Positions 8,533 to 38,761 of a stretch of 64,000 bases of DNA are shown piece by piece (within the stretch, counting starts at the first letter, position 1; every line of letters begins with the position of its first letter). The notes beneath the pieces are model-generated. The model saw nothing but the letters and a program-made list of their open reading frames with translations. It searched no databases and had not been told where the DNA came from. Position numbers and translations under genes: made by a program. The stretch comes from an uncultured Chloroflexia bacterium (GTDB lineage Bacteria > Chloroflexota > Anaerolineae > JAAYZQ01). The DNA is taken from the NCBI GenBank assembly GCA_963700285.1, contig CAVOXA010000001.1:288001-352000 (forward strand), given 5' to 3'.

Positions 8533-9496
8533 TCAGCTCACGCCGATGGCAGTTGTCCCTTGCCGCTTTTCCCGTGTCCGCCAGCGGTACCACGATAGCA
8601 GCAGCACGCCGGCAACGACCAGCACCGCGCCCAGGATCTGGCTCGGCGTAAGCCGCTCGTCGAGCAGAACGTAGGCATAGACGGCCACGAAGGCGATCTC
8701 GCTCATGGCCAGGATGGAGGCCACGCTGGCCGGCAGCCGCCCCAGGGCAAAGGTGTAGAGGGAAAAGGGTACGATGGTCGACAGGCCGATGAGCGCCGCG
8801 AACCAGAGCAGGGAGGTGGTCCCCACCGGGAAGGGCTGGGGGGTGAAGAACTGGAGGGGAAACAGGATCAGGGCGCCAAATCCAAAAGTGTAGGTCAGGC
8901 TCGTCATGGGGTTGTAGGACTGGCGTACCTTTTTGCCAAAGAGGTTCCAAGTGGCGTACAGGGTCGGCGTGCCAAAGCCCACCAGCAGCCCAACCAGGGA
9001 AAGCTCGGACTGGCCCAGGACGTCCACGCCGGAGACAAGTACCGTGCCGGCGAAGGTCAGCACGATGGCCACGATCTTGCTCCAGCTCAGCGACTCGTGC
9101 CACAGGAGCCAGGCAGCCACGGTGACGATGGCGGGCATGGCTGCCTGCTGCACCGTGGCGATTGCCACCCCGTTGAGGAATACGTTCAGGTTCCAGAAGA
9201 CGTGAAAGATGCCCAGGCTGGCCCCCATGCCCACCAGCCAGGGCAGGTCGGAGCGCTGCACCCGCAGCCAGTCCCGGCGAAAGAGCACGAGGGCGAGGAA
9301 CAGGATGGCAAAGGTGGTGATGTCGCGCCAGAAGGCCAGCGACAATGGCCGAGACGCCGGTGTCGAGCGTGATGAGCTTGACAAAGATGCCCGAGGTGCC
9401 CCAGCAGGCAGCGGCGACGACGACGAGCAGGGAGCCGGTCAGATCTGAGCGAGCAGGTGCCGCCGCTTCCCGGGCTTGGGCTGTGGCGTCGGTCAT
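8533..9496 (-). CDS. EamA/DMT-family transporter (one frameshift near 9345)
   Basis: The N-terminal frame (AAACWGTSGIFVK) joins the frame LAFWRDITT...ASVASILAMSE...LDERLTPSQILG; its ATG overlaps the upstream stop (ATGA). Confidence 0.8.
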
Positions 9497-11139
9497 GCAC
9501 ACGTGCTTTCCGGCAGTTCCATCGATTCGATGTAGCGCATGTTAAAGTCGGCGTCCAGGTCCAGGTCGACCTGCTCCGCCTGGGCGGCGATCCGCTCGCC
9601 GCGGGCGAATTGGTCGTCGTCGAGGAAAAGCGCCGCGCCAAAGCCAGCCCCGTTGGCGGATGGTTCGACGACGCCGATGTCGACGGGCGGGATCATACCC
9701 AGGCCGACGACCGCCTGTACGTTTAGGGCGCTGCCGAAAGAGCCGGTGAGGATCATGCGCTGCAAGTCCTTGGGCTCCAGCCCCAACTGGGTCATAAGGA
9801 TCTCGGTGGCGGCGCGGATGGCGCCCTTGGCCTTTTGCAGCTCGCGGACGTCGTGCTGGGTCAGGTACAGGGAGACCTGCTCCGCGTCCTCCCACGACTC
9901 GGCCCCGCGCAGATCCACGCCCTCATCGGTGATCAAGATGCGCCGGACACCCTGGTGATCGACGCTTATCCGATGGCCAAAGACAGGATGGTCCTTGGCC
10001 ATGCGTCCTGAGCGATCGACCAGGCCAACCCGGCGCATCTCGCAGATCATGTCCAGCAAGCCTGAGCCGGTCAGGCCCACCGGCGGGCGGTCGCCGATGG
10101 TGGTCAGGGTGAAGCTGCCCTCCTCGTCGTTGGCACGGACGTTGATGATCGCCCCGTCGACGGCCCGGGTGCCACAGGAGATGTTCACGCCCTCGAAAGC
10201 TGGGCCAGCGGCGGTGGAGGCAACCAAGATGCGGCCCGATCTCCCGGGGCCGTGGCCATCGGTGACCATGACCTCGCCGTTGGTGCCCAGGTCGATGGCG
10301 GCGATGGGACCGGGGGCGCGGTCAAAGTCATAGTAGGTCAGGCAGGCCAGGGCGTCGGAGCCAACAAAACCGCCGATGAGAGGGGGCAGGGCGATCTTGG
10401 CCCCGGCGGGGAAGGTGTCGCCGAACAGCCCATTGGATTGGTGTACCGCGGCTGTACTGTACGGCTGGAAGGGGATGCCAGACAGGGATTCAACCGGGAG
10501 GCAAAGCAGCAGGTGGTGCATGGTACAGTTGCCCACGATGGTCACCCGCTCAATGCGCTCCTTGATGCTGCGCGAGAGCTTGAGGGCGTCCGTGGCCTGG
10601 ACGATGGAGGACAGGGCCAGCATGGAGAGCCGCTGGGCGGTCTCGGGTCCCTGCAGGGCGGCCGCCATGCGCGAGATCACGTCGGCGCCAAAGGCAGTTT
10701 GCTGGTTGAGGGCGGCCGCGCCGGCGCAGACGCGCCCCGTGTCCAGCGTGGTCACAAAGGCGGCCACTGTGGTGCTGCCCAGGTCGATGGCCAGGCCCAG
10801 GGGCACCCCCTTACGCCGGTGGTCGTCGCAGGCGCGGAACATCTTGTTGGAATAGACGACGATGGGGGCCAGGGTGACGGTGACGTCGCCCTCTACCCGG
10901 GCGCGACAGGCGAGACGGTAGTCGGCTGCCTGCTCTGCTTCGGTGAGCCCCTCCAGTTCCCTGTTGTCCAGGGGACTCAGGGCGCCCTGGGCGATGACCT
11001 TGCATTTTTGGCAGGTTCCCCGGCCGGCACAGGGCTGCTCCAGGGGCAGGCCTGCGGTGATGACCGCTGCGCCCAGCAGGGAATCTTTTTCTACGGTGAC
11101 CGACCGCGTGTCGGTTCCATAACTGACGGTGACTTTCAC
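9493..11139 (-). CDS. Reductive activator of corrinoid proteins (RACo/AcsV-like, ASKHA) with N-terminal [2Fe-2S] domain
   Basis: CAGRGTCQKC...RLAC ferredoxin motif; AIDLGSTT, FGADVISR, GGFVGSD, IDLGTNGE, AAGPAFEG, TQHDVRELQKAKGAI. Confidence 0.88.
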   Translation of the reverse strand: MKVTVSYGTDTRSVTVEKDSLLGAAVITAGLPLEQPCAGRGTCQKCKVIAQGALSPLDNRELEGLTEAEQAADYRLACRARVEGDVTVTLAPIVVYSNKMFRACDDHRRKGVPLGLAIDLGSTTVAAFVTTLDTGRVCAGAAALNQQTAFGADVISRMAAALQGPETAQRLSMLALSSIVQATDALKLSRSIKERIERVTIVGNCTMHHLLLCLPVESLSGIPFQPYSTAAVHQSNGLFGDTFPAGAKIALPPLIGGFVGSDALACLTYYDFDRAPGPIAAIDLGTNGEVMVTDGHGPGRSGRILVASTAAGPAFEGVNISCGTRAVDGAIINVRANDEEGSFTLTTIGDRPPVGLTGSGLLDMICEMRRVGLVDRSGRMAKDHPVFGHRISVDHQGVRRILITDEGVDLRGAESWEDAEQVSLYLTQHDVRELQKAKGAIRAATEILMTQLGLEPKDLQRMILTGSFGSALNVQAVVGLGMIPPVDIGVVEPSANGAGFGAALFLDDDQFARGERIAAQAEQVDLDLDADFNMRYIESMELPESTCA

Positions 11140-11159
11140 GAGACTTTCCCTCTCTCCAG

Positions 11160-11928
11160 TTATTGTACGGCTGACTCAAAGGAACAGGGGCCGATGGTGC
11201 ATTTTCCGCAGACCTGGGCCAAGCCGACCTGTCTGTACTCATTCGCTACGCTGAGGCACCGCTGCCAGCAGCTTTGCTTGTCCAGCGGTTCGTCGGGGTC
11301 GATGGCGCTGGCCGGGCAGCGCATGGCGCATTCCAGGCAGCTGCCATCGTGGTAGAACAGCGCATCGTTCCCGGACTTGCAGTTGGCTGGCGGGCAGCTC
11401 GGCGTCCAGGACGAGGCTGCCAAAGCGGCCCGCGCAGCCGGCATCTGTGATGACCATCTGGTGCAGGCCAAAGCTGCCCAGGCCGGCGATGACGGCCACG
11501 CTCTTGTGCGCCCAGCGGCTGACCAGGGTTTCGCGATCAAAGTTGTGGGTGGCAGGCTCGGCCGCGGCCTGAATGCCGTGCTCTGCCAGGTCCTCGATGA
11601 GTTGGGCGGAGATTTGCCCGATGAGTTCATTGGTTTCGACATAGGCCACGGCCCACTCACGGGCAACCTGCTCTCTGTGCTGGGCGTTGGCCTTGATAAC
11701 CCAGGGGGCAAAAGGCAGAAAGAATGATATCACGGAGTGGGCATCCGGGACCAGATCGTGGGGCAGCATGTGGCTGGGGTGGACGACCTCCCGCAATTGG
11801 AGAAACCGTGGATCATCTGCGCTGGCGAATGCGACCAGTGGCTGGCGGTATTCGGTGACCGTGCGGGCCCCGGCCACTGTGCTGTGAACCGTGGCCGTGA
11901 TCAACGCGGCCAACTCATTCGGATCCAT
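11160..11928 (-). CDS. QueG/reductive-dehalogenase-like Fe-S protein (frameshift near 11370)
   Basis: SVISFFLPF, WAHKSVAVIAGLGSFGLH, GCAGRFGSLV, then the frame CLECAMRCPASA...DKQSCWQRC...CGKCTIGPC. Confidence 0.72.
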
Positions 11929-12605
11929 TACGACTCCTCGGCCAGTATCTTGCGTACCTGATCATAGAACTCCTGGACATGGCTGCGCATGATCTTTTCC
12001 GCCTGACCGGCGTCCTGCGCCCTAATGGCGTCCACCAGCTCCAAGTGTGTCCCCACGGCGGAGGGGAGGAAGGCCAGTTGTGGCAGAGCAAGATACCACA
12101 ATCTCTGCGAAAGTCCAAATAGGCGCTCCAGGCCGTCGGCCAGGTACTTGTTGTGGGCCGCCTGGGCTACGGCCTGATGGAACCTGTGGTCGACGTCAAA
12201 GAGCTGGCGGCTGGAGTCAGCCGTGCTGGCGGCAGCGCGGCCGCTGTCCACCGGTGTCTGGGCCTGTTCCAGGCGCAGGGCCTCCAGGACCACGATGTCG
12301 TCCTCGGTGGCCCGCTGGGCGGCCAGCCTGGCGCTGAGCGATTCCAGCGCCAGGCGCATCTCGCTGAGCTGTTCCAGATCGGGCACGTTGACGTCGGCGA
12401 CATAGAGGCCGTGGCGGGGGGTAATGACGACCAGGTTATCGTGGACCAGCAGCTTGAGCGCTTCCCGCACGGGGACGAGGCCCATGTCCAGCTCGCCGGC
12501 CAGGTGTTGCTCGTTGATGACCGAGCCCGGCTCCAGTTGCAGCGAGATGATCAGCTCGCGGATCAGCTCGTAGGTGCGTTTGGTGTCAACTCGCTCTAAT
12601 TCCAT
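11928..12605 (-). CDS. GntR-family (FCD) transcriptional regulator
   Basis: LEPGSVINEQHLA...VPVREALKLL HTH; DHRFHQAV...HNKYL FCD domain. Confidence 0.9.
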   Translation of the reverse strand: MELERVDTKRTYELIRELIISLQLEPGSVINEQHLAGELDMGLVPVREALKLLVHDNLVVITPRHGLYVADVNVPDLEQLSEMRLALESLSARLAAQRATEDDIVVLEALRLEQAQTPVDSGRAAASTADSSRQLFDVDHRFHQAVAQAAHNKYLADGLERLFGLSQRLWYLALPQLAFLPSAVGTHLELVDAIRAQDAGQAEKIMRSHVQEFYDQVRKILAEES

Positions 12606-12617: not shown

Positions 12618-14648
12618 CTATCTGGCAAGGCGCGGGTTGCCGACAGCCCTGGCCCGGATGCGGTAGGTATCGAGACCGTCGGACAGCTCTTCGATGGTCA
12701 CCTCCGGATTGTCGGCGCCGGAGCGGATGGCAGCGCCCAGTGCCCGTTCCTGGCTGAGGGTCCGGGCGTGGTTCAGGGCATGGGCCAGTTCCTCGAACTC
12801 GCGCCGCTCGTCGCTTGTCTGCACGAAATATCCAAATAGCTCCAGGCCCGACGCGGACAGCTTGGGGTAGATGAGGATCTCCTCCTCGACCATCACGCTG
12901 CCGGCGATGGCGCCCACGGCGTTGGCCACCTGGTGATATTCGGGCAGGACCAGCTCGGTGTGCAGGGCCTGGGCGACGGCGGGCAGAAAGATACCGGCTG
13001 GCGCGCCGATGCCGATGATGGGCTGGCGTAGGTGGATGCTGGTTTGCAGGTGGGGGTGGGACTGGTAAAGGCTGTTGTAGAAGAACCACTGGCCTATGTC
13101 GCCGCCAGCTCTGGCCATGGCCCGCTCCCGGCCAGAAAGATGCAGTGGCCTCTGGCTGAGGAAGGTGAGGATGGCGTGCAGGATCATCTCGCTGGCCAGG
13201 GCCCATACCTGCCCGCGCAGTTCGTTCGGGTCGCGAAACCGAAACTGGCAGAATACTTTCCAGGCCAGCTCCGATGCCGAGGACGATCCGCCGTGGCTCG
13301 TATCCCAGGCGTCATAGCGGCCTTCGATGTGCATCAGGTCGGTGGACGTGAGGCCCGCCTTGCCAATAATCTCCTGGCGGATCAGTTCTGAGACGCCTAC
13401 CTGGGCGACGTGCAGCAGGTTGAGGCGCTTTAGGATCTCTGGCACCGGCTTGGGGCTGTCCCGCAGGAGGTCGACCAGATCCCTTTCCCGGGAGGTGCCG
13501 AGCAGGCTCTCGTGGGGCTCGCGCTGCAAGAACCAATATTCGAGCCAGTCGGGCGTGGCTTGGGCCCAGGGGCGCAGGGATAGGGCCTTGAGCTGCTCGC
13601 CGACAGGGGGATGCTTCCAGGCCAGGTAGGCCAGTGGCGTGACCCGCTCGGGGCCAAGCAGTAGCTCTTTGTCGTGGCCGGTAGTGATGTGGCTGTCCCC
13701 TCCCAGGGCAATAGACAGGAGATTCGCGGCCTTGACCGAGGTCTTGTAGTTGCCGACGGTTGCTCCCGCCTCGCTGACAGTTACCTGGCCGCCTTCGATG
13801 AGGGCAATATCCGTGGTGGTGCCCCCCACGTCGATGATGAGGGCATCGTCCATGTGGGAGAGGAAACGACCTCCGATGGCGCTGGCAGCCGGTCCGGAGT
13901 GGATGGTCTCTACTGGCGTCCGGGCCGCGAACTCGTCGCTCATCAGGGTGCCGTCGCCCCGGACGACCATGAGCGGCGCATCGATCTGCCTGCGCTCCAT
14001 GGCCCGCCGTACGGCAATGACAAAGTCCTGGAGGACGGCCAGCAGGGAGGCGTTGAGGGCCGCGGTGGTCGCCCGTTCCACCGAGCCCAACCTGGTGGAA
14101 AGTTGGTGTCCCAGCACGACGGGCAGGTCGCAGACGCTGGAGATGGCCCTGTAGGTCCGGTTCTCGTGTTCGGGGTTGAGCGGGCTAAAATAGCTGGAGA
14201 CGGCGATGGCGTCCACCTGGCCTTTGATCTGGTTCACCTTAGCCAGGATGGCTGGTAGGTCCAGGGCCGCCTTTTCGCGGCCGTAGAGGTCGTGTCCGCC
14301 AGCAAAAAAGTAATAGTTGGGGGTCGCGAGGCGGCCTTCCAGTCTAAACTTGCTGATGAGTTCGGGATCATAGCCGATGAGCAGCAGGGCGACGCGCTTG
14401 CCTTTACCCTCGGCGATGGCGTTGGTGGCCAGGGTCGTGGAGATAGAAACCATCTTGATGGCTGATGGGTCCTCGATCTGGATGCCGCCTATGACGTTTT
14501 CGATGGCGATGGAGAAATCGCGCTTGGTGGTTAGGCTCTTTTGCGAAGCCAATACCCGCCGGGAGTGATATTCTAGCAGGACACAGTCGGTGTAGGTACC
14601 GCCGGTGTCTATGCCCAGTACCAGGCTCGATTCGAGGCTTGTATCCAA
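12618..14648 (-). CDS. Hydantoinase A/oxoprolinase-family ATP-binding protein (no B subunit in window)
   Basis: LGIDTGGTYTD, STTLATNAI, ERATTAALNASL, SGPAASAIG, DVGGTTTDIA, LGGDSH, VANAVGA. Confidence 0.82.
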   Translation of the reverse strand: MDTSLESSLVLGIDTGGTYTDCVLLEYHSRRVLASQKSLTTKRDFSIAIENVIGGIQIEDPSAIKMVSISTTLATNAIAEGKGKRVALLLIGYDPELISKFRLEGRLATPNYYFFAGGHDLYGREKAALDLPAILAKVNQIKGQVDAIAVSSYFSPLNPEHENRTYRAISSVCDLPVVLGHQLSTRLGSVERATTAALNASLLAVLQDFVIAVRRAMERRQIDAPLMVVRGDGTLMSDEFAARTPVETIHSGPAASAIGGRFLSHMDDALIIDVGGTTTDIALIEGGQVTVSEAGATVGNYKTSVKAANLLSIALGGDSHITTGHDKELLLGPERVTPLAYLAWKHPPVGEQLKALSLRPWAQATPDWLEYWFLQREPHESLLGTSRERDLVDLLRDSPKPVPEILKRLNLLHVAQVGVSELIRQEIIGKAGLTSTDLMHIEGRYDAWDTSHGGSSSASELAWKVFCQFRFRDPNELRGQVWALASEMILHAILTFLSQRPLHLSGRERAMARAGGDIGQWFFYNSLYQSHPHLQTSIHLRQPIIGIGAPAGIFLPAVAQALHTELVLPEYHQVANAVGAIAGSVMVEEEILIYPKLSASGLELFGYFVQTSDERREFEELAHALNHARTLSQERALGAAIRSGADNPEVTIEELSDGLDTYRIRARAVGNPRLAR

Positions 14649-14804: not shown

Positions 14805-16307
14805 CTAGCCAAAGATGTCAAAGTCCAGCTCTTCGTCTTTGTGGCGCGCATCGGCCAGCTCGCAGACGCGGCGCAGCTCTTTGTACATGGCCTCGTCCAT
14901 GAGCGGCGCTGTCTCGGTCTCGAGGATCTCGATGACGCGCTCGTGGACGCGCTGGCGATGAGTTTTGCTGCCGGTGGCAGTCCAGTTCTCCCAGTTCTGG
15001 CGGTCGATGAGCTTGGGGCGCCAGATCTCGGTCTTGAAGCGGTCGTAGGTGTGGTCGTGCTCGAGATAGTGACCGCCGGGGCCGACCTGGTCCATGACGT
15101 CTAGTGCCCGGCTGGCATCGGTGACCGGGATGCCGCGCAGGATGCGCTTGACCATGTCGATGATCTCGTCGGAGGCGACCATCATCTCCATGGAGCTGGT
15201 GAGGCCCTGCTCCAGGTAGCCGATGTCGTGGATCATGTTGCCTCCGATGAGGGCGGCGGTGGCGATGTTGATGGTGCCCTCCATCGCCGCCTGTTCATCG
15301 AACATCTTGGCGTCGGAGCAACCGGCCGTCTCGTACTCGGGGACGCCCAGCCACTTGGTGATGTCGGTGTAGGCCGCACTGAGGAGGGCCATCTCGGGCG
15401 AGCCGTAGCAGTAGACCGTGGTCAGCATGTCCATATTGGACATCAGGCCGCCGATGATGAGCGGCGCGCCGGGCTTGCGGATCTGGCTGAGTACGATGCC
15501 AAAGAGGCTTTCAGTGAGGGCCTGCACGGCGGTACCGGCCAGGGTGCAGGGCGCAGTGGCGCCTGCCAGGGGACATGGGGTGTAGACGAAGGGGATCTCG
15601 TTGTCGGTGGCAAAGAGCAGTTTTTGCACCACCTCTTCGGAGTGGCTCAAGGGCGACACCGGTTCGATGTACAGCGTGAATGCAGGACCTTTCCGCCACT
15701 CGTCCTTGCCGCCGACGCGGATGTGGGCCATCTCGAGCTGGTCCTTCAGACCATCGATGTCGACGGCGGTGATGTTGATGGGCTTGTTGGTGCCTTCGAG
15801 CATGGCCAGGTACTGCCAGCGGTCGTAGGTGCCCACCTGCACGTCCTGGACAATGCCCAAAGACATGTGAAAGTCGATGTTGGGCAGGGCCTGGGCAAGT
15901 CGGGCAAAGTTCTTGACGTCGTTGTACGTGGCCCGCCGCCGCTCGCCGGTGTAAGGGTCGATGGTGAAGGGTGTATCGGAGCCAGCGCCAAAGTAGATCG
16001 AGTTCTTGTAGAGTTCCATCTTGTGCTTGCGGTCGGGGCCGACAGCGACTACCTTGCGAGGTAAGGTGGCCAGCGCTTTGTCTACCAGCCAGGGCGGGAT
16101 CTTGACCAGACTGCTGTCCTCGGTGGTATCTTGGACGATGGCGCCGCCCTCATAGGCGACCTGGACCCCTTCCTTGTCGTACACACGAACGCCCGTCTCG
16201 TAGAGCACCGTCAGGGCCGAGAAGTAGATGGCCTCAATCTCGTCTTCGGTGAGTACCTGAAATCTGGGCGTGGCGTTTACTGCATAGTTGGTCTTTTTTA
16301 CCTGCAT
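14805..16307 (-). CDS. mttB: MttB-superfamily corrinoid methyltransferase #1 (non-pyrrolysine)
   Basis: IEPVSPLSH, LAGATAPCTLAG, YGSPE, TAGCSDAKMFDEQAAME, DQVGPGGHYLEHDHT. Symbol is family-level only. Confidence 0.9.
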   Translation of the reverse strand: MQVKKTNYAVNATPRFQVLTEDEIEAIYFSALTVLYETGVRVYDKEGVQVAYEGGAIVQDTTEDSSLVKIPPWLVDKALATLPRKVVAVGPDRKHKMELYKNSIYFGAGSDTPFTIDPYTGERRRATYNDVKNFARLAQALPNIDFHMSLGIVQDVQVGTYDRWQYLAMLEGTNKPINITAVDIDGLKDQLEMAHIRVGGKDEWRKGPAFTLYIEPVSPLSHSEEVVQKLLFATDNEIPFVYTPCPLAGATAPCTLAGTAVQALTESLFGIVLSQIRKPGAPLIIGGLMSNMDMLTTVYCYGSPEMALLSAAYTDITKWLGVPEYETAGCSDAKMFDEQAAMEGTINIATAALIGGNMIHDIGYLEQGLTSSMEMMVASDEIIDMVKRILRGIPVTDASRALDVMDQVGPGGHYLEHDHTYDRFKTEIWRPKLIDRQNWENWTATGSKTHRQRVHERVIEILETETAPLMDEAMYKELRRVCELADARHKDEELDFDIFG

Positions 16308-17846: not shown

Positions 17847-17853
17847 TCGTCTC

Positions 17854-21595: not shown

Positions 21596-21610
21596 CAGGG
21601 TGCCTCCTTC

Positions 21611-25412: not shown

Positions 25413-25413
25413 G

Positions 25414-26465: not shown

Positions 26466-26484
26466 CCCAAGTCTCCTTTGCTCC

Positions 26485-27544: not shown

Positions 27545-27587
27545 GGCTTTCCTCTCCTATCTTGTCCTGCGACTTTCGCAGGCTGAG

Positions 27588-28315: not shown

Positions 28316-28378
28316 CTCCCTCCTGCTGAAGGTTGAGGTCCAGGGTTAGGCGGGGAGCAAAGGTTGAGACCCTTACAC

Positions 28379-29148: not shown

Positions 29149-29242
29149 CTGTACTCACCTCCGCTCCCTCGAGCCGGGAGGCGTGATCGGGCCGCCGCGG
29201 ACGAGTTGGCCCCGCCAGCCCATTTGCCAGAGCGAATGATGG

Positions 29243-31792
29243 CTATTGCTTGGGCTGTACCTGCTGTTCGGCCCAGTCGGGTGGATAGATGATTCTTGCC
29301 TTCACCGTCAAAGTACTGGAGGACGGGGAAGATATAGTAGCCCTTGCCCACAACCGGATCGGGAGTTGTCTCGGGCGTGTACTCGTAGCGGCTCATGACG
29401 ATGCCTTCGGTGTAGGCCCAGTCGCCGGTCCAGACGTTGTCCTTGACAAAGTTGTAGATCGACTCGCTGGTCAGCTCGCCCGCCTCGCGGCAGACGGCCT
29501 TGGCCACAGAGATGAAAAAGTTGCTGCCATCGTAGGACAGGCCAGCCGGCCGAGGGCTGGGTGGGAAGCCCTGTTCGGCCTCAAAGCGCTCGGCAAAGGC
29601 CTTGCCTTCGGCGGTCGCCCAGCCGGGGATCTGGTCGACCACATAGTTGGACGCGCTGCCGGTCAGGTCGTACCACTCGCCAACCCAGCCGAGGCCGTCG
29701 GCGATGATGAGGCTCTCCAGCCCGACCTCATCGGCCTGCTTGATAAAGGCGGACATGGAGGGCGCGGCAGTACTGGTGCCGGCGACGAGGGCCGGGTTGA
29801 GGTCGACGAACTTGTTGAGCAGCGGGTAGAACTCGGTCTGGTCGATGGGAAAGTACTGCTCGGCGACCGTCTGTCCAGCCGGCTTCCTCGAGCTGCCCCT
29901 TGATGGCGTTGCCAAAGCTGCGGCCCCAGTCGGTGTCCTCGCCATAGATGGCGACGGTCTTGGCCTCGGGGGCCCAGGCGCCGCTGGCGATCGCATCTTC
30001 CAGGGCCTGGACGTAGGAGATGCTCAGCTTGACCGGCGTGGGCCAGCCCTTGGTCGTCCAGTAGCCATACTTTTCCGGGTCGGAGTCAAACGTCTCGTTG
30101 ACGACCTCGGTAGCGCCAAAGCCAAAGAAGTGAGGCACCTTGTGCTTGGCGGTCACTTCCATGGCCGAGACGGCCACGGAGCTGTGCCAGTTGAGGACGC
30201 CGGCCTGGATGCCGTCCTGGACAACCGCCTGCTCGTAGGCCTGGGCGGCCTTGGCCGGGTCGGACTGGGAATCGACCCAGACCGGTTCGATCTTGTAATC
30301 GCCAGATCTGGCAGTCGATGTCTCCAAAGGCCATGTCTGACGCGAAGCCTTGAACTCGTCGCCGGTGCGGGCGCTGGGGCCGCTAAACGGGCCCAGGATG
30401 CCCAGCTTGAAGGTCTCGGTGGCCTCCATGGCCTCAGCGCTCGGCGCGTGCAGTCCCTTAGGGCGGTCGACCGTTGCTGTTACGGCCCACTCGGGCGGTA
30501 GACGACCTGGCCTTCGCCATCAAAGTACTGGAGGACGGGGAAGATGTAGTAGCCCTTGCCGACAACCGGGTCGGGCACGTCGTCCGACGTAGTCTTGTAT
30601 TCGCTCATGACGATGCCGTCGGTGTAGGTCCAATCACCGGTCCAGACCTTGTCCTTGACAAAGTGTATAGATCCCTTCGCTGGTCAACTCGCCGGTCTGA
30701 CTCGCATACAGCTTCAGCCAAGGCGATGAAGAAGCGGCTACCGTCGTAGGACAGCCCAGCGGCCGAGGGCTGGGCGGGAAGCCCTGTTCGGCTTCAAAGC
30801 GTTCGGCAAAGGCCTTGCCCTCGGCGGTCGCCCAGCCGGGGATCTGGTCGAGGACATAGTTGGAGGCGCTGCCGGTGAGGTCGTACCACTCGCCGAAACC
30901 AGCCCAGGCCGTCGGCGATGATCAGGCTCTCCAGCCCGACCTCGTCAGCCTGCTTGATAAAGGCGGACATGGTAGGCGCGGCGGTGCTGGTGCCGGCGAC
31001 GACGGCGGGGTTGAGGTCGACGAACTTGTTGAGGAGCGGGTAGAACTCGGTCTGGTCGATGCCAAAGTACTCCTCGGCCACCGTCGTCCAGCCGGCTTCC
31101 TCGAGCTGGCTCCTTGATGGCATTGCCAAAGGAGCGGCCCCAGTCGGTGTCCTCGCCATAGATGGCGACGGTCTTGTCCTCGGGCGACCAGGCGCCGCTG
31201 GCGATGGCGTCTTCGAGGGCCTGGACGTAGGAGATGCTCAGCTTCTTGGGCGTAGGCCAGCCCTTGAACATCCAGTAGCCGTACTTTTCGGGGTCAGAAG
31301 CAAATGTCTCGTTGACGACCTCGGTGGCGCCAAAGCCAAAGAAGTGGGGGACCTTGTGCTTGGCGGTCTGCTCCATGGCCGAGACGGCTACGGAGCTGTG
31401 CCAGTTCAGGACGCCGGCCTGGATGCCGTCCTGGACGACGGCCTGCTCGTAGGCCTGGGCGGCCTTGGCCGGGTCGGACTGCGAGTCGATCCAGACCGGC
31501 TCGATCTTGTACTGGCAGATCTGCCAGTCGATGTCGCCAAAGGCCATGTTGACGGAGGCCTTGAACTCGTCGCCGGTGCGGGCGCTGGGGCCGCTAAACG
31601 GTCCCAGGATGCCCAGCTTGAAGGTACCCTCTGCTTCAGGCATGGGCTCTGCCGCTTCCTCCTTGGTGGGTTCCGCTGCTGCCGGCGCGTCGGTTCAGGC
31701 GCAGCTGGTTCGGCTGGCTCCTGGGTCGCCCCGCAGCCAGCGACCGCAAAGACGAGCCCTATGATGATCACCATCGGCAGGAGCTTTTGCAT
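29243..31792 (-). CDS. Liv-type substrate-binding lipoprotein with two tandem near-identical binding domains (frameshifted)
   Basis: Signal MQKLLPMVIIIGLVFAVAGC; two copies of FKLGILGPFSGPSARTGDEF...WHSSVAV...EDTDWGRS...PVLQYFDGEG...YPP(E/D)WA at ~30490-31625 and ~29250-30415. Confidence 0.75.
29250..31625. repeat. Direct duplication of ~1.15 kb (two SBP domains)
   Basis: Long stretches of the two copies are identical at DNA level, with scattered substitutions. Confidence 0.85.
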
Positions 31793-31995: not shown

Positions 31996-33159
31996 CTATT
32001 CGAAGCAACTCTGATAGATCTTTTCGTATCCTGCCAGGTTGATGTCCCGCGGATTGCCAACGGTTTGGGGATCATCGTAGGCCAGTTGGGCCAGCATGGG
32101 GATATCTTCCTGTGGGATGTTCATCTCGGACAGCGTGGGAATGTCCAGGTCCGCAGAAAGTCGCGCCACGGCATCTACGGCCAGTTCCGCCGCATCCCAC
32201 ACAGGCAGCCCCCAGGTATACTCACCCAGAGCCTGGGCGATGCGCGCGTACTTTTGGGGCTCACCCATATAGTTGTAGGCCATCACCGGCGCCAGAAGAG
32301 ATGCGGTCAGCGCCCCGTGGGGCAAATTGTAGTAGCCGCCTGCTGTCTGGCTCATGGCGTGCACTGCGCCGGCGCTCTCCGTGCCGTAGCTCATGCCGGC
32401 CAGCATGGAGGCCATGGACATTTTATAGCGCGCTTCCTCGTTGTGTCCCTGGGCGTAGGCCAGACGCAGCCACTGCCCGATGGTCTCAATGGCCCACAGA
32501 GCCACCGCATCGGGCCAGGGCTGGGCATAGCCGCAGGTGTAGCATTCGATGGCGTGGGTCAGTGCATCCATCCCTGTGCCCGCAGTGATGTGTGGTGGAA
32601 GCCCCAGGGTCAGGCGTGGATCGATGAGGGCCACGTGGGCCGCGATCAAGCCGGTGCCGCCGACGTTGTACTTGATCTTGCGCTTGGGGTCGGTAATGAC
32701 AGCCCACAGCGTCACCTCGCTGCCGGTGCCTGATGTTGTGGGCACACAGACGAGGGGCGGAATGCGCTTGACAATGGGCTGCGGATCTGCCCACTCAAAG
32801 TCAAGGATGGAGCCGCCGTGTACGGCTACGACTCCGATTGACTTGGCGGTATCCATCGGGCTGCCGCCGCCAAAACCGATGAGGCCATCACAGCCCTCGG
32901 CCCGGTAGAGTCCGGCGGCATCGTCGACCAGCTTGATCTCCGGATTGGGGACTACGCCGTCAAAGAGAACATAGTCCAGGTTGCCGGCCTTAAGGCTCTT
33001 GACCGCTTCGTCGACCAGGCCCGCGGCTACCAGTCCATCGTCTGTTACCAGCATGGGGCGTTTGCTGCCCAGCGCCTTGATCTCGTCGGCCAGACAGGTG
33101 ATGGCCCCTGGGGCGTGCTTGACCACGGTCGGCACCTCAAAAGAACGCAGATTAATCAT
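31996..33159 (-). CDS. Iron-containing (type III) alcohol dehydrogenase
   Basis: GFGGGSPMDTAK, VPTTSGTGSEVT, GMDALTHAIE, VHAMSQ...PHG; ATG 33159 with a GGAGG RBS. Confidence 0.9.
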   Translation of the reverse strand: MINLRSFEVPTVVKHAPGAITCLADEIKALGSKRPMLVTDDGLVAAGLVDEAVKSLKAGNLDYVLFDGVVPNPEIKLVDDAAGLYRAEGCDGLIGFGGGSPMDTAKSIGVVAVHGGSILDFEWADPQPIVKRIPPLVCVPTTSGTGSEVTLWAVITDPKRKIKYNVGGTGLIAAHVALIDPRLTLGLPPHITAGTGMDALTHAIECYTCGYAQPWPDAVALWAIETIGQWLRLAYAQGHNEEARYKMSMASMLAGMSYGTESAGAVHAMSQTAGGYYNLPHGALTASLLAPVMAYNYMGEPQKYARIAQALGEYTWGLPVWDAAELAVDAVARLSADLDIPTLSEMNIPQEDIPMLAQLAYDDPQTVGNPRDINLAGYEKIYQSCFE

Positions 33160-33259
33160 GATCCCAAATCCTCCATATTGAGCAGGTTTGACTATCGTAC
33201 CGGCATGATGCTTGCCGTCCACCCTAGGTGACAATGATGGCAAAAAAGAACAGACGATA

Positions 33260-34018
33260 TCAGGTCCTTTGTACTTCTTCTACTTCCTCGTACCAGCGCA
33301 TGCGGGTACCGACCCTGGCTCGCATCTTCCAGGCCATAGTTTTCGGGGCCTCATCCATGGCCATTTGCAGGGCGATCAGGCGTCTCTTGATGGTCTGCAC
33401 GTCCTCGTCGTCCAGGTCGATCTGGTCCTCATCCAAAAAGTCGCGCAACTTCTGGATGGTCATGGACACAGTGGTATAGAGCCCCCAGTCTTTGCTGCAG
33501 AGTTTGGAAATCAGGTCTGAATTGATGGTCTCCTCATCCACGGGGCCCACCCTGTGATCCAAGAGCAGGGCCAGCAGGTCGAGTATGTCCTTACGGTTTA
33601 ACTCGACGATCTGGGCCTTGGAGAGAAAGAGCTCGGCTAGAGGAATGGTCAGTGGCTCGACTTCCAACCGGTCAGCGAGGGGCAGGGTGTGGCACATGGT
33701 AAAGTCGCCGATAAAGACGTCTATCTGCCGTCCCTGTGCTTCGTCATACCAGAGCTGCCGCCTGTCGCCGCTGAGCGTGTTAAAAGTTTTGTTTGGGGTG
33801 TAGCCCATGTCCGGCAAAAAGCTGATGAGTTTCTTGGCCCCTGCTTTGTTGGTGACAAAGTCGATGTCGGGGTATTTGCGTTCTAGAGAGCGATGGCTGG
33901 CGTTGGTAGAGTGGACCTTGATGGCCAGGCCCCCGATGACGCGCAGGAAGATGACCTCTTGCTGGGCCGCGGTAATGAGACGATACATCTCGTCTTCAAG
34001 ATTGGCTAGTGTAGTCAT
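33260..34018 (-). CDS. Uncharacterised protein with nucleotidyltransferase-fold motifs
   Basis: LRVIGGLAI...YPDIDFV (hG[GS]...DxD), IDVF (third Asp), helical C-terminus LSKAQ...KDILD. Confidence 0.6.
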   Translation of the reverse strand: MTTLANLEDEMYRLITAAQQEVIFLRVIGGLAIKVHSTNASHRSLERKYPDIDFVTNKAGAKKLISFLPDMGYTPNKTFNTLSGDRRQLWYDEAQGRQIDVFIGDFTMCHTLPLADRLEVEPLTIPLAELFLSKAQIVELNRKDILDLLALLLDHRVGPVDEETINSDLISKLCSKDWGLYTTVSMTIQKLRDFLDEDQIDLDDEDVQTIKRRLIALQMAMDEAPKTMAWKMRARVGTRMRWYEEVEEVQRT

Positions 34019-34047
34019 GGGCTCCCCTCTGTTGCCTGGCATTACCT

Positions 34048-34077
34048 TGGGGCAGGGAGTCAGCTCCCTGCCCCCAA
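34048..34077. other. GC-rich hairpin downstream of the APC permease gene
   Basis: GGGGCAGGGAG-TCAG-CTCCCTGCCCC. Confidence 0.55.
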
Positions 34078-34095
34078 CAATCGTTTCTCGGATTC

Positions 34096-35745
34096 CTATT
34101 CGACGGGAATCTCCTTATAGATCTTGTCGATGTCAATCCCCTCGCGCCTGCGGTACCACTTGAAGCCCAGGTAGAGGCCGAGGGCCAGCAGGTACATGGC
34201 CAGCATGTAGATGACCGAACTGGTATTGGACAGGCCGATGCCATACAGGCCATTCGGGTCTATGAGCCACTGGTACAAGAGGTAGCCCAGGAAGGCGCCA
34301 AAGATGACGCCTGCGATGCTGATGAGGGGGACGCCCAAGATCTTGTACTTGGCGATGGGCGATGCGTTGTACAGGTCCTTCTTGATCCAGGGCAGGAGGA
34401 TAGCGGCAATAGTAGAACCTAAATAGGTAACGGCGATGACCAGCGTGGAGCACAGGGTCAATGTCTGGAAGTTAAAGATGTTCCAGGCAAAGAGGGCGGC
34501 CACGATGAGGGATGGAACCACCATCAGCACCAGCGCTATGATCGGCGTCCGTGTACGGGGGTCCACCTCGGCCACTTTTTCTGGCAGCAGGCGGTCAAAA
34601 GCGGCGGCAAAGATGACGCGGGTGGAACTGAGAAAGACCGTACCCGACCAGCCGAACCACCAGGCGCTCATGGCCAGGATGACGATGAACTGGAGTATGC
34701 GGCTGGGGGTCATAAAGACGGCCAGCAGCGCGGGGTAGGGCCAGATGGGCAGCGGAGGTACCTGCTCGGTATAACCCCAGCGATAGTTCCACCAGGCCCC
34801 ATTGGCGTTCATATACCAGTCCCAAGTGATCGTCTTCGAGATCAGCAGGAAAAAGACGGCGCCCAGGATGGTGGTACCGATCAGCGCCCAGCCCATTCCC
34901 CAGAAGTTGCGCTTGAAATCGGTCGCGCCGCGTACCTCGCCATACAGCGTCGCCCCCCAGTTGGGCCACAGGTTAAAAAAGACGATGTAGGGGATTGCCA
35001 GAAAGATGACGCCCAGCGTGCCGCCAAAGAGGGGGGCGATGGCGCCGGCTTCCTGTCCGGCAGCGACGGTCTTGTCGTAGACGTTTTCGGCGGCGTCAAA
35101 CATCTCTGGCGCCTGGGCATTCAGGCCAGCCTGGAAGGACGCGTTGTTGCCCAAGAGCAGGAAAAGCAAGACGATGGCCAACGCGACGATGCTGATCCAG
35201 AAACACCATTTCTGGATGCGGGAATACCACTTCATGCCGATGGCAATATAGATGCCGACAATGATGCACACGATCACGGCCGTGACGAACAGGCCGATGG
35301 GCGTGTTGCTGAACCAAAGCGCCGCTCCGGTGGCGCCCAGGATGCCCAACAGCGGGGTGAAAAACAACTGGCGGAGCATGTCGGCATAGAGCGGCACCCA
35401 CAGCCAGAGGATAAACCACCAGCCGGTGACGGCCAGCACAAAGCCAATGCCGCCACCTAAAATGCGGCTCTGCCAGACATAGTCCCCTCCAGCGCGGGGC
35501 ATCACGGCGATCAAGGCGGCATAGACCACCACCTCGAAGATGATGAATATCCCGCTGACGATGAGGGTAGGCATCAGCCCACCCTCAAAATAGTACATCT
35601 GGCTGAAACTGTATAGGCCCAAGGTGATGAGGTTGATGGAAAAGAAGGCGTAGATGAAGGCGTCAAAGACCGACCACGACCGCACCAGTCCCGTCGCCTT
35701 GCGCAAAAACAGACTTGTCTCCTGGCTCTTGGCTTCTTCGGACAT
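34096..35745 (-). CDS. APC-superfamily amino acid/amine permease
   Basis: FLRKATGLVR N-terminus, MPRAGGDYVWQSR, YGEVR, TRVIFAAAFDRLLP, ~12 TM helices, IYKEIPVE C-terminus. Confidence 0.88.
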   Translation of the reverse strand: MSEEAKSQETSLFLRKATGLVRSWSVFDAFIYAFFSINLITLGLYSFSQMYYFEGGLMPTLIVSGIFIIFEVVVYAALIAVMPRAGGDYVWQSRILGGGIGFVLAVTGWWFILWLWVPLYADMLRQLFFTPLLGILGATGAALWFSNTPIGLFVTAVIVCIIVGIYIAIGMKWYSRIQKWCFWISIVALAIVLLFLLLGNNASFQAGLNAQAPEMFDAAENVYDKTVAAGQEAGAIAPLFGGTLGVIFLAIPYIVFFNLWPNWGATLYGEVRGATDFKRNFWGMGWALIGTTILGAVFFLLISKTITWDWYMNANGAWWNYRWGYTEQVPPLPIWPYPALLAVFMTPSRILQFIVILAMSAWWFGWSGTVFLSSTRVIFAAAFDRLLPEKVAEVDPRTRTPIIALVLMVVPSLIVAALFAWNIFNFQTLTLCSTLVIAVTYLGSTIAAILLPWIKKDLYNASPIAKYKILGVPLISIAGVIFGAFLGYLLYQWLIDPNGLYGIGLSNTSSVIYMLAMYLLALGLYLGFKWYRRREGIDIDKIYKEIPVE

Positions 35746-35986
35746 TGGAACCGCTCCTTTCTACACAAGAAATGGCTAGCTGATGTAGCAACGTTGCCCG
35801 CAGGTCACGGCTGCAAACTGCGGCTGCATTCCGCATCATGGGAATGCCTCCAATCCGCTAGACAGGTCTTTTGCTGATAGGCGCCTCCTTGTCTTCTAAC
35901 CCGCTCACCGAGTTTCCCCGGCGACGTGTTGGCCTGCCCTCCCGGACAAGAACCCCCCGCAGCCCATTTTACCTTCAGGCTGAGGA

Positions 35987-36928
35987 CTAGCCAGTGGTCA
36001 AGATGTAGCTCTTGACCTTGTTGCGGGCCAGTGTGACCACTGCGCCAAGCAAGCGGCCCTGCTCGTACATGCTGCCGGGGTTGATACACAGCGTCTGACC
36101 GACCCGGATAGCCCCTTTGCCCTCGTGGATGTGCCCGTGCAAGCCCAGTATCGGCCTGTATTCCTGAATGATGTCACGAACAGCGCGACTCCCGACAGGA
36201 ACCAGGGATCTTCCCCCAAGTTTTGGCGTCAGTTCCTCATCCAACTCGGGCACGTCGTCGAGCGTCGTTCCGTACGGCGGTACGTGTAGGTTGAATACGC
36301 TGGTCCTGGGGTTCTTGAGCTGGGAGAGCATGGCATCGTAGCGGATCCTCAGCGCTTCGTCGTCCTCCTCGCGGTAGGTGTGCCAGGGAGTGATGTTGCT
36401 CCAGCCGGAACTGATCATCTCGTGGTCCCGGTCTAGTTCCATGACCTCGCCCTCGACCAATTGCACGTGCTTTGAGGTCCGGATTAGATCGTCCAGCTCA
36501 AACATATCGTCATTACCGGGCGCGACGTAGCAGCGTAGGCCGGAGCCCTCCAGCTTTTCATCGGCGTAGGCCAACCACTGCTCAGCCGTCTTGAGTACCT
36601 GGGTGTGAAAGATCTTGTCCACACTCTCAGGTTGTTCGCTGAGTTCAGCGATCTCCTCAGAGGTGGTACGGTAGGGATAGTAGCCCCGACTTTTGATGTG
36701 CTTTTCCATCTCCAGCACCTGATCTTCGCCCCTCAGGATCGACTCCTGCTCCAGTAGGACCGCTTTGTAGGTGTCACCTTTTTGATGGATGATGGGCACA
36801 ATGGCTTTGCCGGTCATGTCGCCGCCCAGGATGATGATATCTGCCCCATAGAATTTGCCGGCGCTGATGAACTTTTTCCAGCAGATATCAGAGCCGTGTA
36901 CATCGGTGGCGAAGAACAGTGTGGTCAT
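35987..36928 (-). CDS. Calcineurin-like metallophosphoesterase
   Basis: Motifs FATDVHGS, LGGDMTGK, PGNDD, NLHVPP, LHGHIHE, INPGS. Confidence 0.85.
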   Translation of the reverse strand: MTTLFFATDVHGSDICWKKFISAGKFYGADIIILGGDMTGKAIVPIIHQKGDTYKAVLLEQESILRGEDQVLEMEKHIKSRGYYPYRTTSEEIAELSEQPESVDKIFHTQVLKTAEQWLAYADEKLEGSGLRCYVAPGNDDMFELDDLIRTSKHVQLVEGEVMELDRDHEMISSGWSNITPWHTYREEDDEALRIRYDAMLSQLKNPRTSVFNLHVPPYGTTLDDVPELDEELTPKLGGRSLVPVGSRAVRDIIQEYRPILGLHGHIHEGKGAIRVGQTLCINPGSMYEQGRLLGAVVTLARNKVKSYILTTG

Positions 36929-37024: not shown

Positions 37025-37888
37025 CTACCCGGCCTTCTGTCTCTTGCGATAAGCCTTGAGATAGCGCATGGCATAATCATCGCGGCCCAGCGCCAGATCG
37101 GCGGCCAGGATATAAGACCCAACTTTGGCGGCATCGACGATGGGGCAATTCAGGCCGCGGGCAATGGCCATGGCCAGGAACACGCCGTTGATGGTCTCTC
37201 GGTCAGGAAGGCCAAAGGAGACATTGCTGGCGCCCAAGGCCAAGTTGACCCCCAATTCCTCCTTGACCATACGGATGGCTTCCAGCGTGACCCAGCCGGC
37301 CTGGGAATCAGCCCCAACTGTAAGAGCCAGGCAGTCGATGAGGATATCTTCGCGGCCGATGCCATGGGCTGCGGCCCTGTCGACGATCTTTGTGGCGACA
37401 GCCAGCCGTGCCTGCGGCGTTGGTGGAATGCCATCATCGTCCATGGCCAGGCCGATCACGGCCGTACCATACTCTGCCACCAGTGGCAGCACCCTGGCCA
37501 GGCTTGCCTCCTCACCGTTGACCGAGTTGATCAATACCTTACCGTCAGGGTTTATCTCCTTGTGTGCCGCCAGTGCGGCTGCCATCGCCACACCATCCGC
37601 CGTGTCGATGGCGATAGGCACATCTACCGTCTCTAGCACCAGTCTGACAGCTTTGGGCAGCAGGTCCGCTTCGTCGACGCCAGCGGCGCCAACATTGACA
37701 TCTAGAATGTGGGCGCCTGCCTCGACCTGGGCCAATGCCTCTTGGCGGACGATCTCCAGATCTCCGGCTGCCAGTGCGGCGGCCAGTTTCTTCTTGCCGG
37801 TAGGATTGATCCGCTCGCCGAGCATAGCGGTTGGCCGGCCGGTGCCAATGACTACCTGTTTTGCCATACCTTTGAGAATTGTATCCAT
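37025..37888 (-). CDS. Methylcorrinoid:tetrahydrofolate methyltransferase (pterin-binding; AcsE/MtgA/MetH-folate-domain-like)
   Basis: LGERINPTGKK, GAHILDVNVG, PIAIDT, LINSVNGE, IDCL, GASNVSFGLPDR. Confidence 0.88.
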   Translation of the reverse strand: MDTILKGMAKQVVIGTGRPTAMLGERINPTGKKKLAAALAAGDLEIVRQEALAQVEAGAHILDVNVGAAGVDEADLLPKAVRLVLETVDVPIAIDTADGVAMAAALAAHKEINPDGKVLINSVNGEEASLARVLPLVAEYGTAVIGLAMDDDGIPPTPQARLAVATKIVDRAAAHGIGREDILIDCLALTVGADSQAGWVTLEAIRMVKEELGVNLALGASNVSFGLPDRETINGVFLAMAIARGLNCPIVDAAKVGSYILAADLALGRDDYAMRYLKAYRKRQKAG

Positions 37889-37955
37889 GAATCGACTCCT
37901 CTCAGTCAGAATGATTGATTTTGGACAGAGCCAAAGCTGATAGCTGCTGTGATGC

Positions 37956-38600
37956 TTACAAGACAGCCTTGATCTCTCGCTGAAAGTCGGCGACATGCCT
38001 TTGCAGTAGAGTCTCGGCGCGGGCTCCGTCGCAATCCAGCAAGGCGGCGGTGATGGCTGTATGCTGCTCCATGGCCCCCCTGACGTCGCCGATGCGGTCG
38101 AGGGTTAGATGCCAGATGCGATGGCTCAAGGCGTGGAGGTGGGCAAGGGTATCGGCGAGAAACTCGTTGTCGGCGGCCTGATATATCAGCTCGTGGAAGC
38201 GTTCGTCGATATCCATCAGGGCCCGATTGTCGCCGTTGGGGATCTGCTCGAGTTCGGCGATCACGGCCCGCATCTGAGCCAACTGGTGCGGAGTGGCGCG
38301 CTCGGCAGCAAGACGGGCGCAAAAGCCTTCCAGCACCATGCGCATCTCAAAGATCTTTTGCAGGTCAGTGATGCCAATATCGGCGACGAACATGCCTCGC
38401 CTGGGGGCGGAAAGGAGGAGGCCCTCCGATGCGAGCCGCTGCAGGGCTTCACGGATGGGCGTACGCCCCAGGTGGAGGTTCTCCATCAGTGCTTGTTCAT
38501 CGATGGTGGACAGGGGGGGGAGCTCCAGAGTGATGATCTTGTGCCTGATCAGTTGATAGGCTTTGTCGCTGAGCCGCACAGGTTTCTCCTCTCTGAGCAA
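37956..38600 (-). CDS. GntR-family (FCD) regulator heading the methyltransferase cluster
   Basis: GRTPIREALQRL HTH, PRRGMFV, DERFHELIYQAADNEFL; paralogous to 11928..12605. Confidence 0.88.
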   Translation of the reverse strand: MLREEKPVRLSDKAYQLIRHKIITLELPPLSTIDEQALMENLHLGRTPIREALQRLASEGLLLSAPRRGMFVADIGITDLQKIFEMRMVLEGFCARLAAERATPHQLAQMRAVIAELEQIPNGDNRALMDIDERFHELIYQAADNEFLADTLAHLHALSHRIWHLTLDRIGDVRGAMEQHTAITAALLDCDGARAETLLQRHVADFQREIKAVL

Positions 38601-38732
38601 GTCCCCCTACAGCAGGCTTCACTGCCCCGACTGGATCCCAGTTCTGCAAAAAGAGACGTTGTGCCAGCGAACCCAGTCAAGCACTGGGGTGAAGCGCTTG
38701 GAATACTCTAAATATATTCACAATACATTCCT

Positions 38733-38761
38733 AGTATACCATACATTGCTGAGGTTGTCAA
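38733..38761 (-). promoter_or_regulatory. Consensus sigma70 promoter driving the minus-strand cluster
   Basis: On the minus strand TTGACA-17 nt-TATACT with an extended TG; flanked by ATACATT direct repeats (38723, 38741) and an AATATATT palindrome (38711). Confidence 0.8.

Follow-up and report, generated by a model that had tools for sequence, protein, structure and literature searches.

Organization of the gene cluster

The window analysed here, a stretch of 64,000 nucleotides from contig CAVOXA010000001.1 of an uncultured Chloroflexia bacterium (GCA_963700285.1), carries a gene cluster that is probably for corrinoid-dependent demethylation of N-methylated compounds. ORF listing, translation and Pfam/NCBIfam scans gave 25 co-oriented minus-strand genes between 38600 and 8533, a doubled binding protein being counted as one. 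Four of them encode MttB-family methyltransferases of the MT1 type, designated by the working labels MTa, MTb, MTc and MTd. Intergenic distances outside the ABC block were -1 to about 240 bp, and the promoter, TTGACA-17-TG-TATACT (38761-38733), matched 11 of 12 consensus positions. An earlier note on this DNA had described about 25 co-oriented, closely spaced genes behind a consensus promoter, and the ORF listing, the measured gaps and the promoter match agree with that description. The family scans likewise found the content that it listed: four MttB-family proteins, two corrinoid proteins (CoP), a methylcorrinoid:tetrahydrofolate (THF) methyltransferase (MT2), the activator RACo, Liv-type ABC, APC and EamA transporters, an Fe-type alcohol dehydrogenase (Fe-ADH), a DAO-type flavoprotein, an OCD-family protein and two GntR regulators. 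Five more genes were present, a metallophosphoesterase, a nucleotidyltransferase (NTase), DUF1638, a HydA-like ATPase and a small 4Fe-4S protein. The features are given below in the order in which the genes run from 38600 to 8533. Bare coordinates are window positions, G numbers are genomes, L numbers fetched loci and C numbers contigs; G000 is the genome that holds the cluster.

38733 to 38761, minus strand: sigma70-type promoter with extended -10, by sequence match; conserved upstream of GntR1 in G047, G032 and G022
38702 to 38728, minus strand: AT-rich motif just 3' of the -10 box, putative GntR operator; kept in all four genomes with GntR1 here
37956 to 38600, minus strand: GntR1 (GntR + FCD), by family scan
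37025 to 37888, minus strand: MT2, methylcorrinoid:THF methyltransferase (MtgA/AcsE-like); NF005719, 261 bits versus cut-off 259
35987 to 36928, minus strand: calcineurin-like metallophosphoesterase; PF14582 weak, PDB 2yvt E=2.5e-4
34096 to 35745, minus strand: APC permease, by family scan; in another class, a 46% ortholog belongs to a choline-kinase-like/GbsB/MttB cluster
33260 to 34018, minus strand: Pol-beta-like NTase, by fold likeness; in 25 of 29 loci its neighbour is an APC or phosphoesterase homolog
31996 to 33183, minus strand: Fe-ADH, GbsB-type choline dehydrogenase; NF053866, 571.8 bits versus cut-off 550
29200 to 31792 (approximate), minus strand: Liv-type binding protein, two tandem copies, frameshifted; family scan
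25450 to 29148 (approximate), minus strand: LivG, LivF, LivH and LivM, all frameshifted; family scan and alignment
24181 to 25420, minus strand: DAO-family flavoprotein (like SoxB, proline dehydrogenase beta and the DMGDH FAD domain), frameshifted; family scans
22680 to 24090 (approximate), minus strand: MTa, MtgB-type MT1, frameshifted; Y97, R312, H348, Tyr at F356
21600 to 22587 (approximate), minus strand: OCD/mu-crystallin imine reductase, frameshifted; family scan, closest to archaeal AlaDH and a Pyr2C reductase
20163 to 21595, minus strand: MTb, non-MtgB MT1, frameshifted; pocket residues and ortholog context
19404 to 20042, minus strand: corrinoid protein 1 (CoP1), by family scans
17854 to 19311, minus strand: MTc, non-MtgB MT1 (E209, C324, H354-D355); pocket residues and context
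17202 to 17846, minus strand: corrinoid protein 2 (CoP2), by family scans
16405 to 17139, minus strand: DUF1638, by family scan; the only copy found in G000
14805 to 16307, minus strand: MTd, non-MtgB MT1 (E215, C330, H360-D361); pocket residues and context
12618 to 14648, minus strand: HydA-like ASKHA ATPase without B subunit, by family scan
11928 to 12605, minus strand: GntR2, by family scan
11160 to 11928, minus strand: small Cys-rich 4Fe-4S-type protein, frameshifted; CxxCxxxC motifs
9493 to 11139, minus strand: RACo reductive activator, by family scan
8533 to 9470 (approximate), minus strand: EamA exporter, frameshifted near its start; family scan

The promoter and the AT-rich motif recurred upstream of GntR1 in three of the four relatives compared; the fourth, the same-genus genome G001, lacks GntR1. 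The tandem binding protein occupies one ORF in G006 and is a single copy in other relatives, and no solved structure was related to it at E<=1e-8. The small 4Fe-4S-type protein had no family match in Pfam/NCBIfam or further scans, and a tRNA scan of the window found none. In one RNA run, two short pieces matched MTd and MTc without mismatch, which is weak and no sign of an operon transcript; no sequencing run contained more than 0.19 of the search words. Upstream on the same strand (38883-41410) lie a threonine-aldolase-family gene, which could possibly give a link to glycine, a gene for a 275-residue protein without a family match and a B3/4-domain gene, all kept in G001.

About ten of the genes were broken by one-base insertions or deletions (indels): MTa, MTb, OCD, DAO, five Liv genes, the 4Fe-4S gene and EamA. 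Set against G001, the stretch 20164-25533 contains 24 indels that break the frame; most affect one base, and a few are intergenic or possibly on the G001 side. Because the compensating base is present in short-read contigs of close strains at 23827, 23830, 23926, 24362 and other positions, and because intact orthologs exist, the frameshifts are most likely errors of long-read assembly. One locus, L281, is an intact near-copy without the ABC block, DAO and MTb. Pseudogenes were ruled out, the indels being mostly single-base, patchy and absent from the short-read contigs at the positions given, as was pyrrolysine read-through, the breaks being changes of frame and not TAG stops.

Conservation among relatives

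MTd orthologs of at least 80% identity were found in 15 of 60 relatives, and MTc adjoined MTd in 13 of 14 relatives' loci, the contig being cut in the fourteenth. Gene order was thus conserved among Anaerolineae relatives, a comparison that the earlier note had proposed. MTc was present in 25 of the 301 genomes of the class, while MTb, OCD, DAO, Liv and GbsB varied independently among relatives in a modular fashion. The same-genus genome (L021-L022, G001:C8:124000-139000) keeps all four MT1s, and its locus has neither the promoter, the two corrinoid proteins, DUF1638 and HydA nor the ABC block and choline genes. A CBS-domain protein lies between MTa and CoP1 in several relatives (L023:13402-14067 and others) and is absent from the window. 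Two different HydA-like paralogs flank one cluster in L063, L066, L067, L076, L307 and L317.

Choline and glycine betaine

The Fe-ADH passed the curated cut-off for GbsB, the next family scoring 321, and so did all six orthologs first tested. GbsB was found in 15 of the 25 MTc genomes versus 7 of the 276 without MTc, in a class sample where kin are not independent and the overlap spans four families. The relatives with GbsB (11 of 60) all carry MTd as well. Among 11 GbsB loci, an aldehyde:ferredoxin oxidoreductase (AOR) gene was adjacent in 4, a choline-sulfatase fragment in 1, and a ProV/ChoXWV transporter was near in 1. Two genomes (G690 and G713) had the single run MT2-CoP1-MTc-CoP2-DUF1638-MTd-HydA-EamA-GbsB-AOR-ProV. 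Moreover, a G000 AOR was 61% identical to the AOR adjoining GbsB in G005, and MTa lay immediately 3' of GbsB in G013 and L281.

Two genomes of another class had the order phosphoesterase-APC-GcvT flavoprotein-choline-kinase-like-GbsB-MttB-GcvT flavoprotein-NTase, in which the phosphoesterase, APC and GbsB were 48%, 46% and 61% identical to those of the window and the MttB had Y97, R312 and H348. This locus is a choline-to-glycine route, with GcvT-type flavoproteins filling the place of MTc and MTd. By analogy, the APC permease of the window likely imports choline or a related amine.

The MtgB pocket consists of a cation-pi pair, Y97 and F356, and two carboxylate ligands, R312 and H348; this motif was called a minimum set, and F356Y was tolerated (PMC13080624). 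The window pieces of MTa keep Y97, R312 and H348 and have Tyr at F356, and the same Tyr/Tyr pair occurred in all nine intact close orthologs. On this context, choline and glycine betaine are very probably substrates of the cluster. A phosphocholine route (MthB/MthK) is unlikely, as the cluster has no kinase gene; one choline-kinase-like query, from G368, had no match in G000 at 1e-15.

The earlier note had supposed a single methylated compound of unspecified kind. That idea was not supported: the Fe-ADH passes the GbsB cut-off, MTa has the MtgB motif, and the gene context points to two backbones, glycine (from choline and betaine) and proline or hydroxyproline. Choline and amino-acid betaines, and not an unknown compound, most likely make up the substrate class.

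Active sites of MTb, MTc and MTd

The residues at positions Y97/R312/H348/F356 were V/F/H/G in MTb (G001 ortholog), P/W/H/A in MTc and S/Y/H/G in MTd. The alignment thus bore out the proposal that three of the four MT1s lack the MtgB motif, each departing from it at Y97, R312 and F356. R312 is kept in MtcB, MtpB, MthB and MtyB (PMC13080624), and an aromatic residue stands in place of this conserved Arg in all three enzymes (Phe in MTb, Trp in MTc, Tyr in MTd). Scores of 362 and 399 against TIGR02369, the profile of the pyrrolysine-containing trimethylamine enzyme MttB, fell below its cut-off of 525. Cys instead stands where MttB has pyrrolysine, in all 81 c-type, 55 of 59 d-type and all 6 b-type sequences. 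An invariant Glu (81/81 c-type and 59/59 d-type) and a His-Asp pair (81/81 c-type and most d-type) complete the pattern.

Non-quaternary amines require activation prior to methyl transfer, so that this distinct pocket would fit non-quaternary substrates. The pocket alone does not name the substrate, since eight other full-length G000 paralogs share the Cys together with His-Asp or close variants.

The MTc-MTd pair

A c-type alignment was used to fetch 80 metagenome loci, and in 15 of them sister forms of MTc and MTd (44-50% identity) share an operon with a gene resembling sarcosine/dimethylglycine methyltransferase (SDMT). These operons also carry CoP, HydA and usually DUF1638 and MT2. The SDMT-like protein scored 360-425 bits against a cut-off of 550 and matched PDB 2O57 with E=1.6e-68. 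Several SDMT-like genes have metH and metF before them and ahcY and metK after them; others occur with a GcvR-like ACT protein. The gene order CoP-MTd-like-MTc-like-HydA-DUF1638-MT2 was seen in L241-L268 (for example L254:6075-17057 and L260:2192-20206) and in L071:4819-16029, several with a ribokinase-family gene. No GSMT was seen within the SDMT-linked loci, and the weak SAM-methyltransferase matches inspected did not resemble GSMT by eye. Corrinoid-assisted betaine synthesis is possible at these loci, and the metabolites of the operons are glycine, sarcosine and dimethylglycine, whether they serve betaine synthesis or methyl salvage.

In Sporomusa silvacetica (L092:1088-21074), a CoP-MT-MT-HydA block lies inside a Grd reductase cluster with selB and thioredoxin reductase; the best Grd matches were sarcosine GrdF/G, below cut-off. 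No MtgB motif was seen in the L092 MttB matches placed in the tree (four matches in the locus). The MttB trees were built with FastTree and rooted at midpoint; frameshifted genes were left out, with G001 orthologs standing in for MTa and MTb. In one of the two trees, MTc and MTd were the only full-length G000 MttBs in the clade (0.997 support) that contains the Sporomusa-type pairs; in the other, the Firmicute pairs formed a sister clade.

Because the two genes are paired, and occur with choline genes here and with an SDMT-like gene in other lineages, MTc and MTd would probably act on the N-methylglycines dimethylglycine and sarcosine.

MTb and a proposed proline branch

MTb was found in 11 of the 301 class genomes, all with MTc; G000 itself was missed through its frameshifts. 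For 12 close MTb orthologs with context, the window included, OCD was adjacent in 5, a proline-racemase-family gene was adjacent in 3, and 2 more were in HypD loci; of the remaining two, one had a LarA-type racemase only and one had none of these. The two HypD proteins tested passed the HypD cut-off, and G000 has a HypD ortholog at 78%. The nearest matches of OCD were archaeal alanine dehydrogenase and a Pyr2C reductase, and those of DAO were chain B of 1Y56 and the FAD domains of dimethylglycine dehydrogenase. A second DAO-OCD pair in G000 (C1:855491-857830), 34% and 39% identical to that of the cluster, suggests that the two work as a unit. In addition, racemase, OCD and LarA genes alternate around the same block, which suggests a backbone that is chiral, unlike glycine. 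The aerobic proline betaine pathway passes through N-methylproline (PMC3950512). The context of MTb tips the balance slightly towards a methylated proline as its substrate, for example N-methyl(hydroxy)proline.

Host genome and probable fate of the methyl groups

G000 comprises 7.05 Mb and is 89% complete. Homologs of MTd at 87-88% identity carry Anaerolineae names, which placed the host, presumed in the earlier note to be a member of the Chloroflexota, in the Anaerolineae. The genome had 59 MttB matches, corresponding to about 43 genes by covered length, of many pocket types. Approximately 13 MttB genes lie in one stretch (G000:C14:389000-431000), which also contains two corrinoid proteins, a further OCD and a gene of the proline-racemase family; other MttB stretches are at C6:169000-191000 and, several of them, on C10. 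DUF1638 was found nowhere else in G000, and RACo had just one other match, beside the ACS genes, so the cluster probably also serves MttB genes elsewhere in the genome.

All parts of the MT1, corrinoid protein, MT2 and activator scheme were recovered in the family scans. The flow of methyl groups to THF, for which a search of the genome for MetF and Wood-Ljungdahl genes had been recommended, gained support in that ACS, Fhs and MetF occur together on contig C22. GcvP is also present. There were 21 AOR matches and one Aldedh match, the latter on another contig, and four Sporomusa queries gave no Grd reductase.

Accessory genes

Among 150 DUF1638 homologs examined, 13 of the 14 long ones were fused to a HydA-like ATPase. 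DUF1638 together with a RamA-like protein is required for a split methionine synthase in Phaeobacter (bioRxiv 10.1101/192971), and DUF1638 rises on betaine in Ruegeria (PMC12478193). The HydA-like ATPase is likely a corrinoid-maintenance partner of DUF1638. By Pfam it has the A-subunit ASKHA fold, and a modelled homolog (P0128, not the window protein) matched acetone carboxylase and NMHase. No HydA B subunit was found in the cluster by family scan or seen in the intact copy L281, and its absence makes hydantoinase activity unlikely. The corrinoid link is limited to part of the HydA family, since 49 of 80 loci in the wider family had no corrinoid gene nearby.

The NTase, with its Pol-beta-like fold, was present in 85 of 401 Chloroflexota genomes in varied metabolic contexts, usually beside APC or the phosphoesterase. 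A choline-specific role for the phosphoesterase-APC-NTase triad (33260-36928) was not borne out, given this range of contexts and genomes. A possible role of the triad is to attach a nucleotide to the transporter, or to what it transports, and to take it off again.

Comparison with known systems

The closest characterized counterpart of MTa is MtgB of the MtgB/MtgC/MtgA system of Desulfitobacterium hafniense (PDB 2QNE, 9YCE), which aligned over its full length with the intact G001 ortholog (E about 1e-132). The window cluster has a corrinoid protein, MT2 and an activator like the D. hafniense system. Unlike that system, it adds three MT1s, two corrinoid proteins, a choline dehydrogenase and proline-type enzymes, has no BCCT transporter and belongs to an Anaerolineae host. 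The Bacillus enzyme GbsB (NF053866) defines an equivalog whose cut-off was passed, but the window has no GbsA partner; here GbsB would serve catabolism and not osmoprotection.

In Ca. Formimonas warabiya DCMF, the betaine-induced genes Ga0180325_114734-114742 have the same CoP-MT1-CoP-MT1-HydA order, as do the syntenic blocks of Sporomusa and Ca. Frackibacter (PMC9768040). The comparison with DCMF rests on this order and on protein lengths, which are 485/488/668 in DCMF versus 485/500/676 residues in the window, with a third MT1 and MT2 in both (PMC9768040). The window has in addition DUF1638, GbsB, MTb and the proline-type genes, while the organisms with those blocks cleave sarcosine with Grd reductase (PMC9768040).

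The Eubacterium limosum enzymes MtpB, MtcB, MtyB and MthB/MthK are likewise non-pyrrolysine MttB proteins that share MT2 and an activator, in a genome with about 40 paralogs. They differ from the window enzymes in that they keep R312 (PMC13080624), a position at which MTb has Phe, MTc has Trp and MTd has Tyr. The aerobic proline betaine pathway (HpbD, HpbBC, HpbA) involves two demethylations, via N-methylproline, and a stereo-inversion; its demethylases are Rieske and flavin enzymes (PMC3950512), whereas corrinoid MT1s are proposed for the window. In the Phaeobacter split methionine synthase, DUF1638 and an activator of the RACo/RamA type lie beside corrinoid proteins, as here (bioRxiv 10.1101/192971), but the window DUF1638 is accompanied by a HydA-like ATPase.

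In the cited literature, the characterized non-pyrrolysine MttB enzymes all remove the first methyl of a quaternary amine, and PMC9768040 leaves the anaerobic dimethylglycine demethylase open. A literature search, with subscription papers mostly outside its scope, found no characterized corrinoid dimethylglycine, sarcosine or N-methylproline methyltransferase and no Anaerolineae choline cluster. What is new is the identity of three MT1s for later demethylation steps, not the substrate class.

Proposed pathway and alternatives

On balance we favour a two-branch anaerobic pathway that would remove methyl groups from (hydroxy)proline betaine and from glycine betaine derived from choline. The sequence itself shows the gene content, the families to which the proteins belong, the active-site residues and the synteny, and the substrates are assigned from gene context. 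Fe-ADH would oxidize choline toward glycine betaine; relatives pair GbsB with AOR. MTa would take the first methyl from glycine betaine, MTc and MTd would take those of dimethylglycine and sarcosine, and in the second branch MTb would demethylate N-methyl(hydroxy)proline. The corrinoid proteins and MT2 would pass the methyls to THF, with RACo as activator, and, to the degree that the two-branch pathway itself is favoured, the methyl-THF would feed the Wood-Ljungdahl pathway of G000.

Several observations weigh against this pathway. In the choline branch, 10 of the 25 MTc genomes, G001 included, have no GbsB match; there is no betaine aldehyde dehydrogenase (the GbsA partner) in the cluster, and the single Aldedh match comes from an incomplete genome. 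For MTc and MTd, the SDMT-like proteins fall below the curated cut-off and their MT1 partners differ from MTc and MTd in the residue at the R312 position. The Sporomusa MT1 pair is 37-39% identical to MTc, and the Sporomusa/Firmicute pairs share a larger clade with MTc and MTd (0.997, 0.982), in which the two trees place them differently, one as nested and one as sister. Although DCMF has a pair of this kind, it fails to degrade sarcosine when H2 is absent (PMC8163858), which disfavours a sarcosine demethylase in the DCMF pair. Moreover, G000 may have another route for dimethylglycine and sarcosine because it contains two GcvT-type flavoproteins of full length, with 35-37% identity to the ones in G368 and G465. 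In the proline branch, the proline-racemase-like proteins are below the curated cut-off, and no proline-type gene neighbours the five MTb homologs of lower identity (59-62%). Since D. hafniense MtgB barely uses proline betaine (PMC13080624), the first step of this branch has no assigned enzyme unless MTa is broader.

Some of these points recur in other explanations of the cluster. Choline and glycine betaine may be served with MTc and MTd forming one two-subunit enzyme for a single step, or taking betaine by way of dimethylglycine to sarcosine, with DAO or a GcvT flavoprotein finishing; we regard this as unlikely. The adjacency of the two genes in relatives is consistent with it, as are the two MT1s per one corrinoid protein in Sporomusa and SDMT-linked operons, the halt of DCMF demethylation at sarcosine (PMC8163858) and the presence of GbsB, MTc and MTd in G690 and G713 with no MtgB-type gene in the locus. 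In the window, however, MTc and MTd each have a separate corrinoid protein, betaine is already covered by MTa, and sarcosine would need a further step because the Sporomusa queries gave no Grd match in G000. It is considerably less probable that the four MT1s serve mainly proline and hydroxyproline betaines, the choline genes being a later insert that shares only MT2 and the activator. Liv-DAO-MTa(-MTb) blocks do occur in HypD loci away from MTc and MTd (G580, G747, G784), a proline-racemase gene adjoins the c/d-type block in L277, and the phosphoesterase-APC-NTase triad is widespread in unrelated contexts; against this, MTa directly follows GbsB in G013 and L281, GbsB tracks MTc across the class, and the SDMT link points to glycine derivatives. 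A single multiply N-methylated compound, such as a methyl-lysine or polyamine, demethylated stepwise by all four MT1s, seems equally improbable. The uncharacterized pockets of three MT1s, the lack of a solved relative of the binding protein at E<=1e-8 and the many MttB pocket types of G000 leave room for such a substrate, but among relatives MTb, OCD, DAO, Liv and GbsB are present or absent independently of one another, a poor fit to one obligate series, and the neighbours that can be named are enzymes of choline, betaine, sarcosine or proline.

The two-branch pathway could be extended. We put forward, tentatively and with more doubt than confidence, that MTc and MTd, with MTb, may constitute a separate MttB class for non-quaternary N-methyl amino acids, marked by Cys in place of pyrrolysine and by the invariant Glu and His-Asp, that includes the missing anaerobic dimethylglycine and sarcosine methyltransferases. 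In other bacteria the pair would run in reverse, glycine being methylated from methyl-THF and the SAM-dependent SDMT catalysing only the last step; if true, glycine betaine would be made by a SAM-sparing route that has not been described.

MTc and MTd, which are intact and highly conserved, and MTb, with N-methylproline, are specific candidates open to the existing cob(I)alamin assay. If the pathway is as proposed, a sizeable group of Anaerolineae (those with MTc in the class sample) would consume choline and betaines with no release of trimethylamine, in competition with the route that feeds methylotrophic methanogens.

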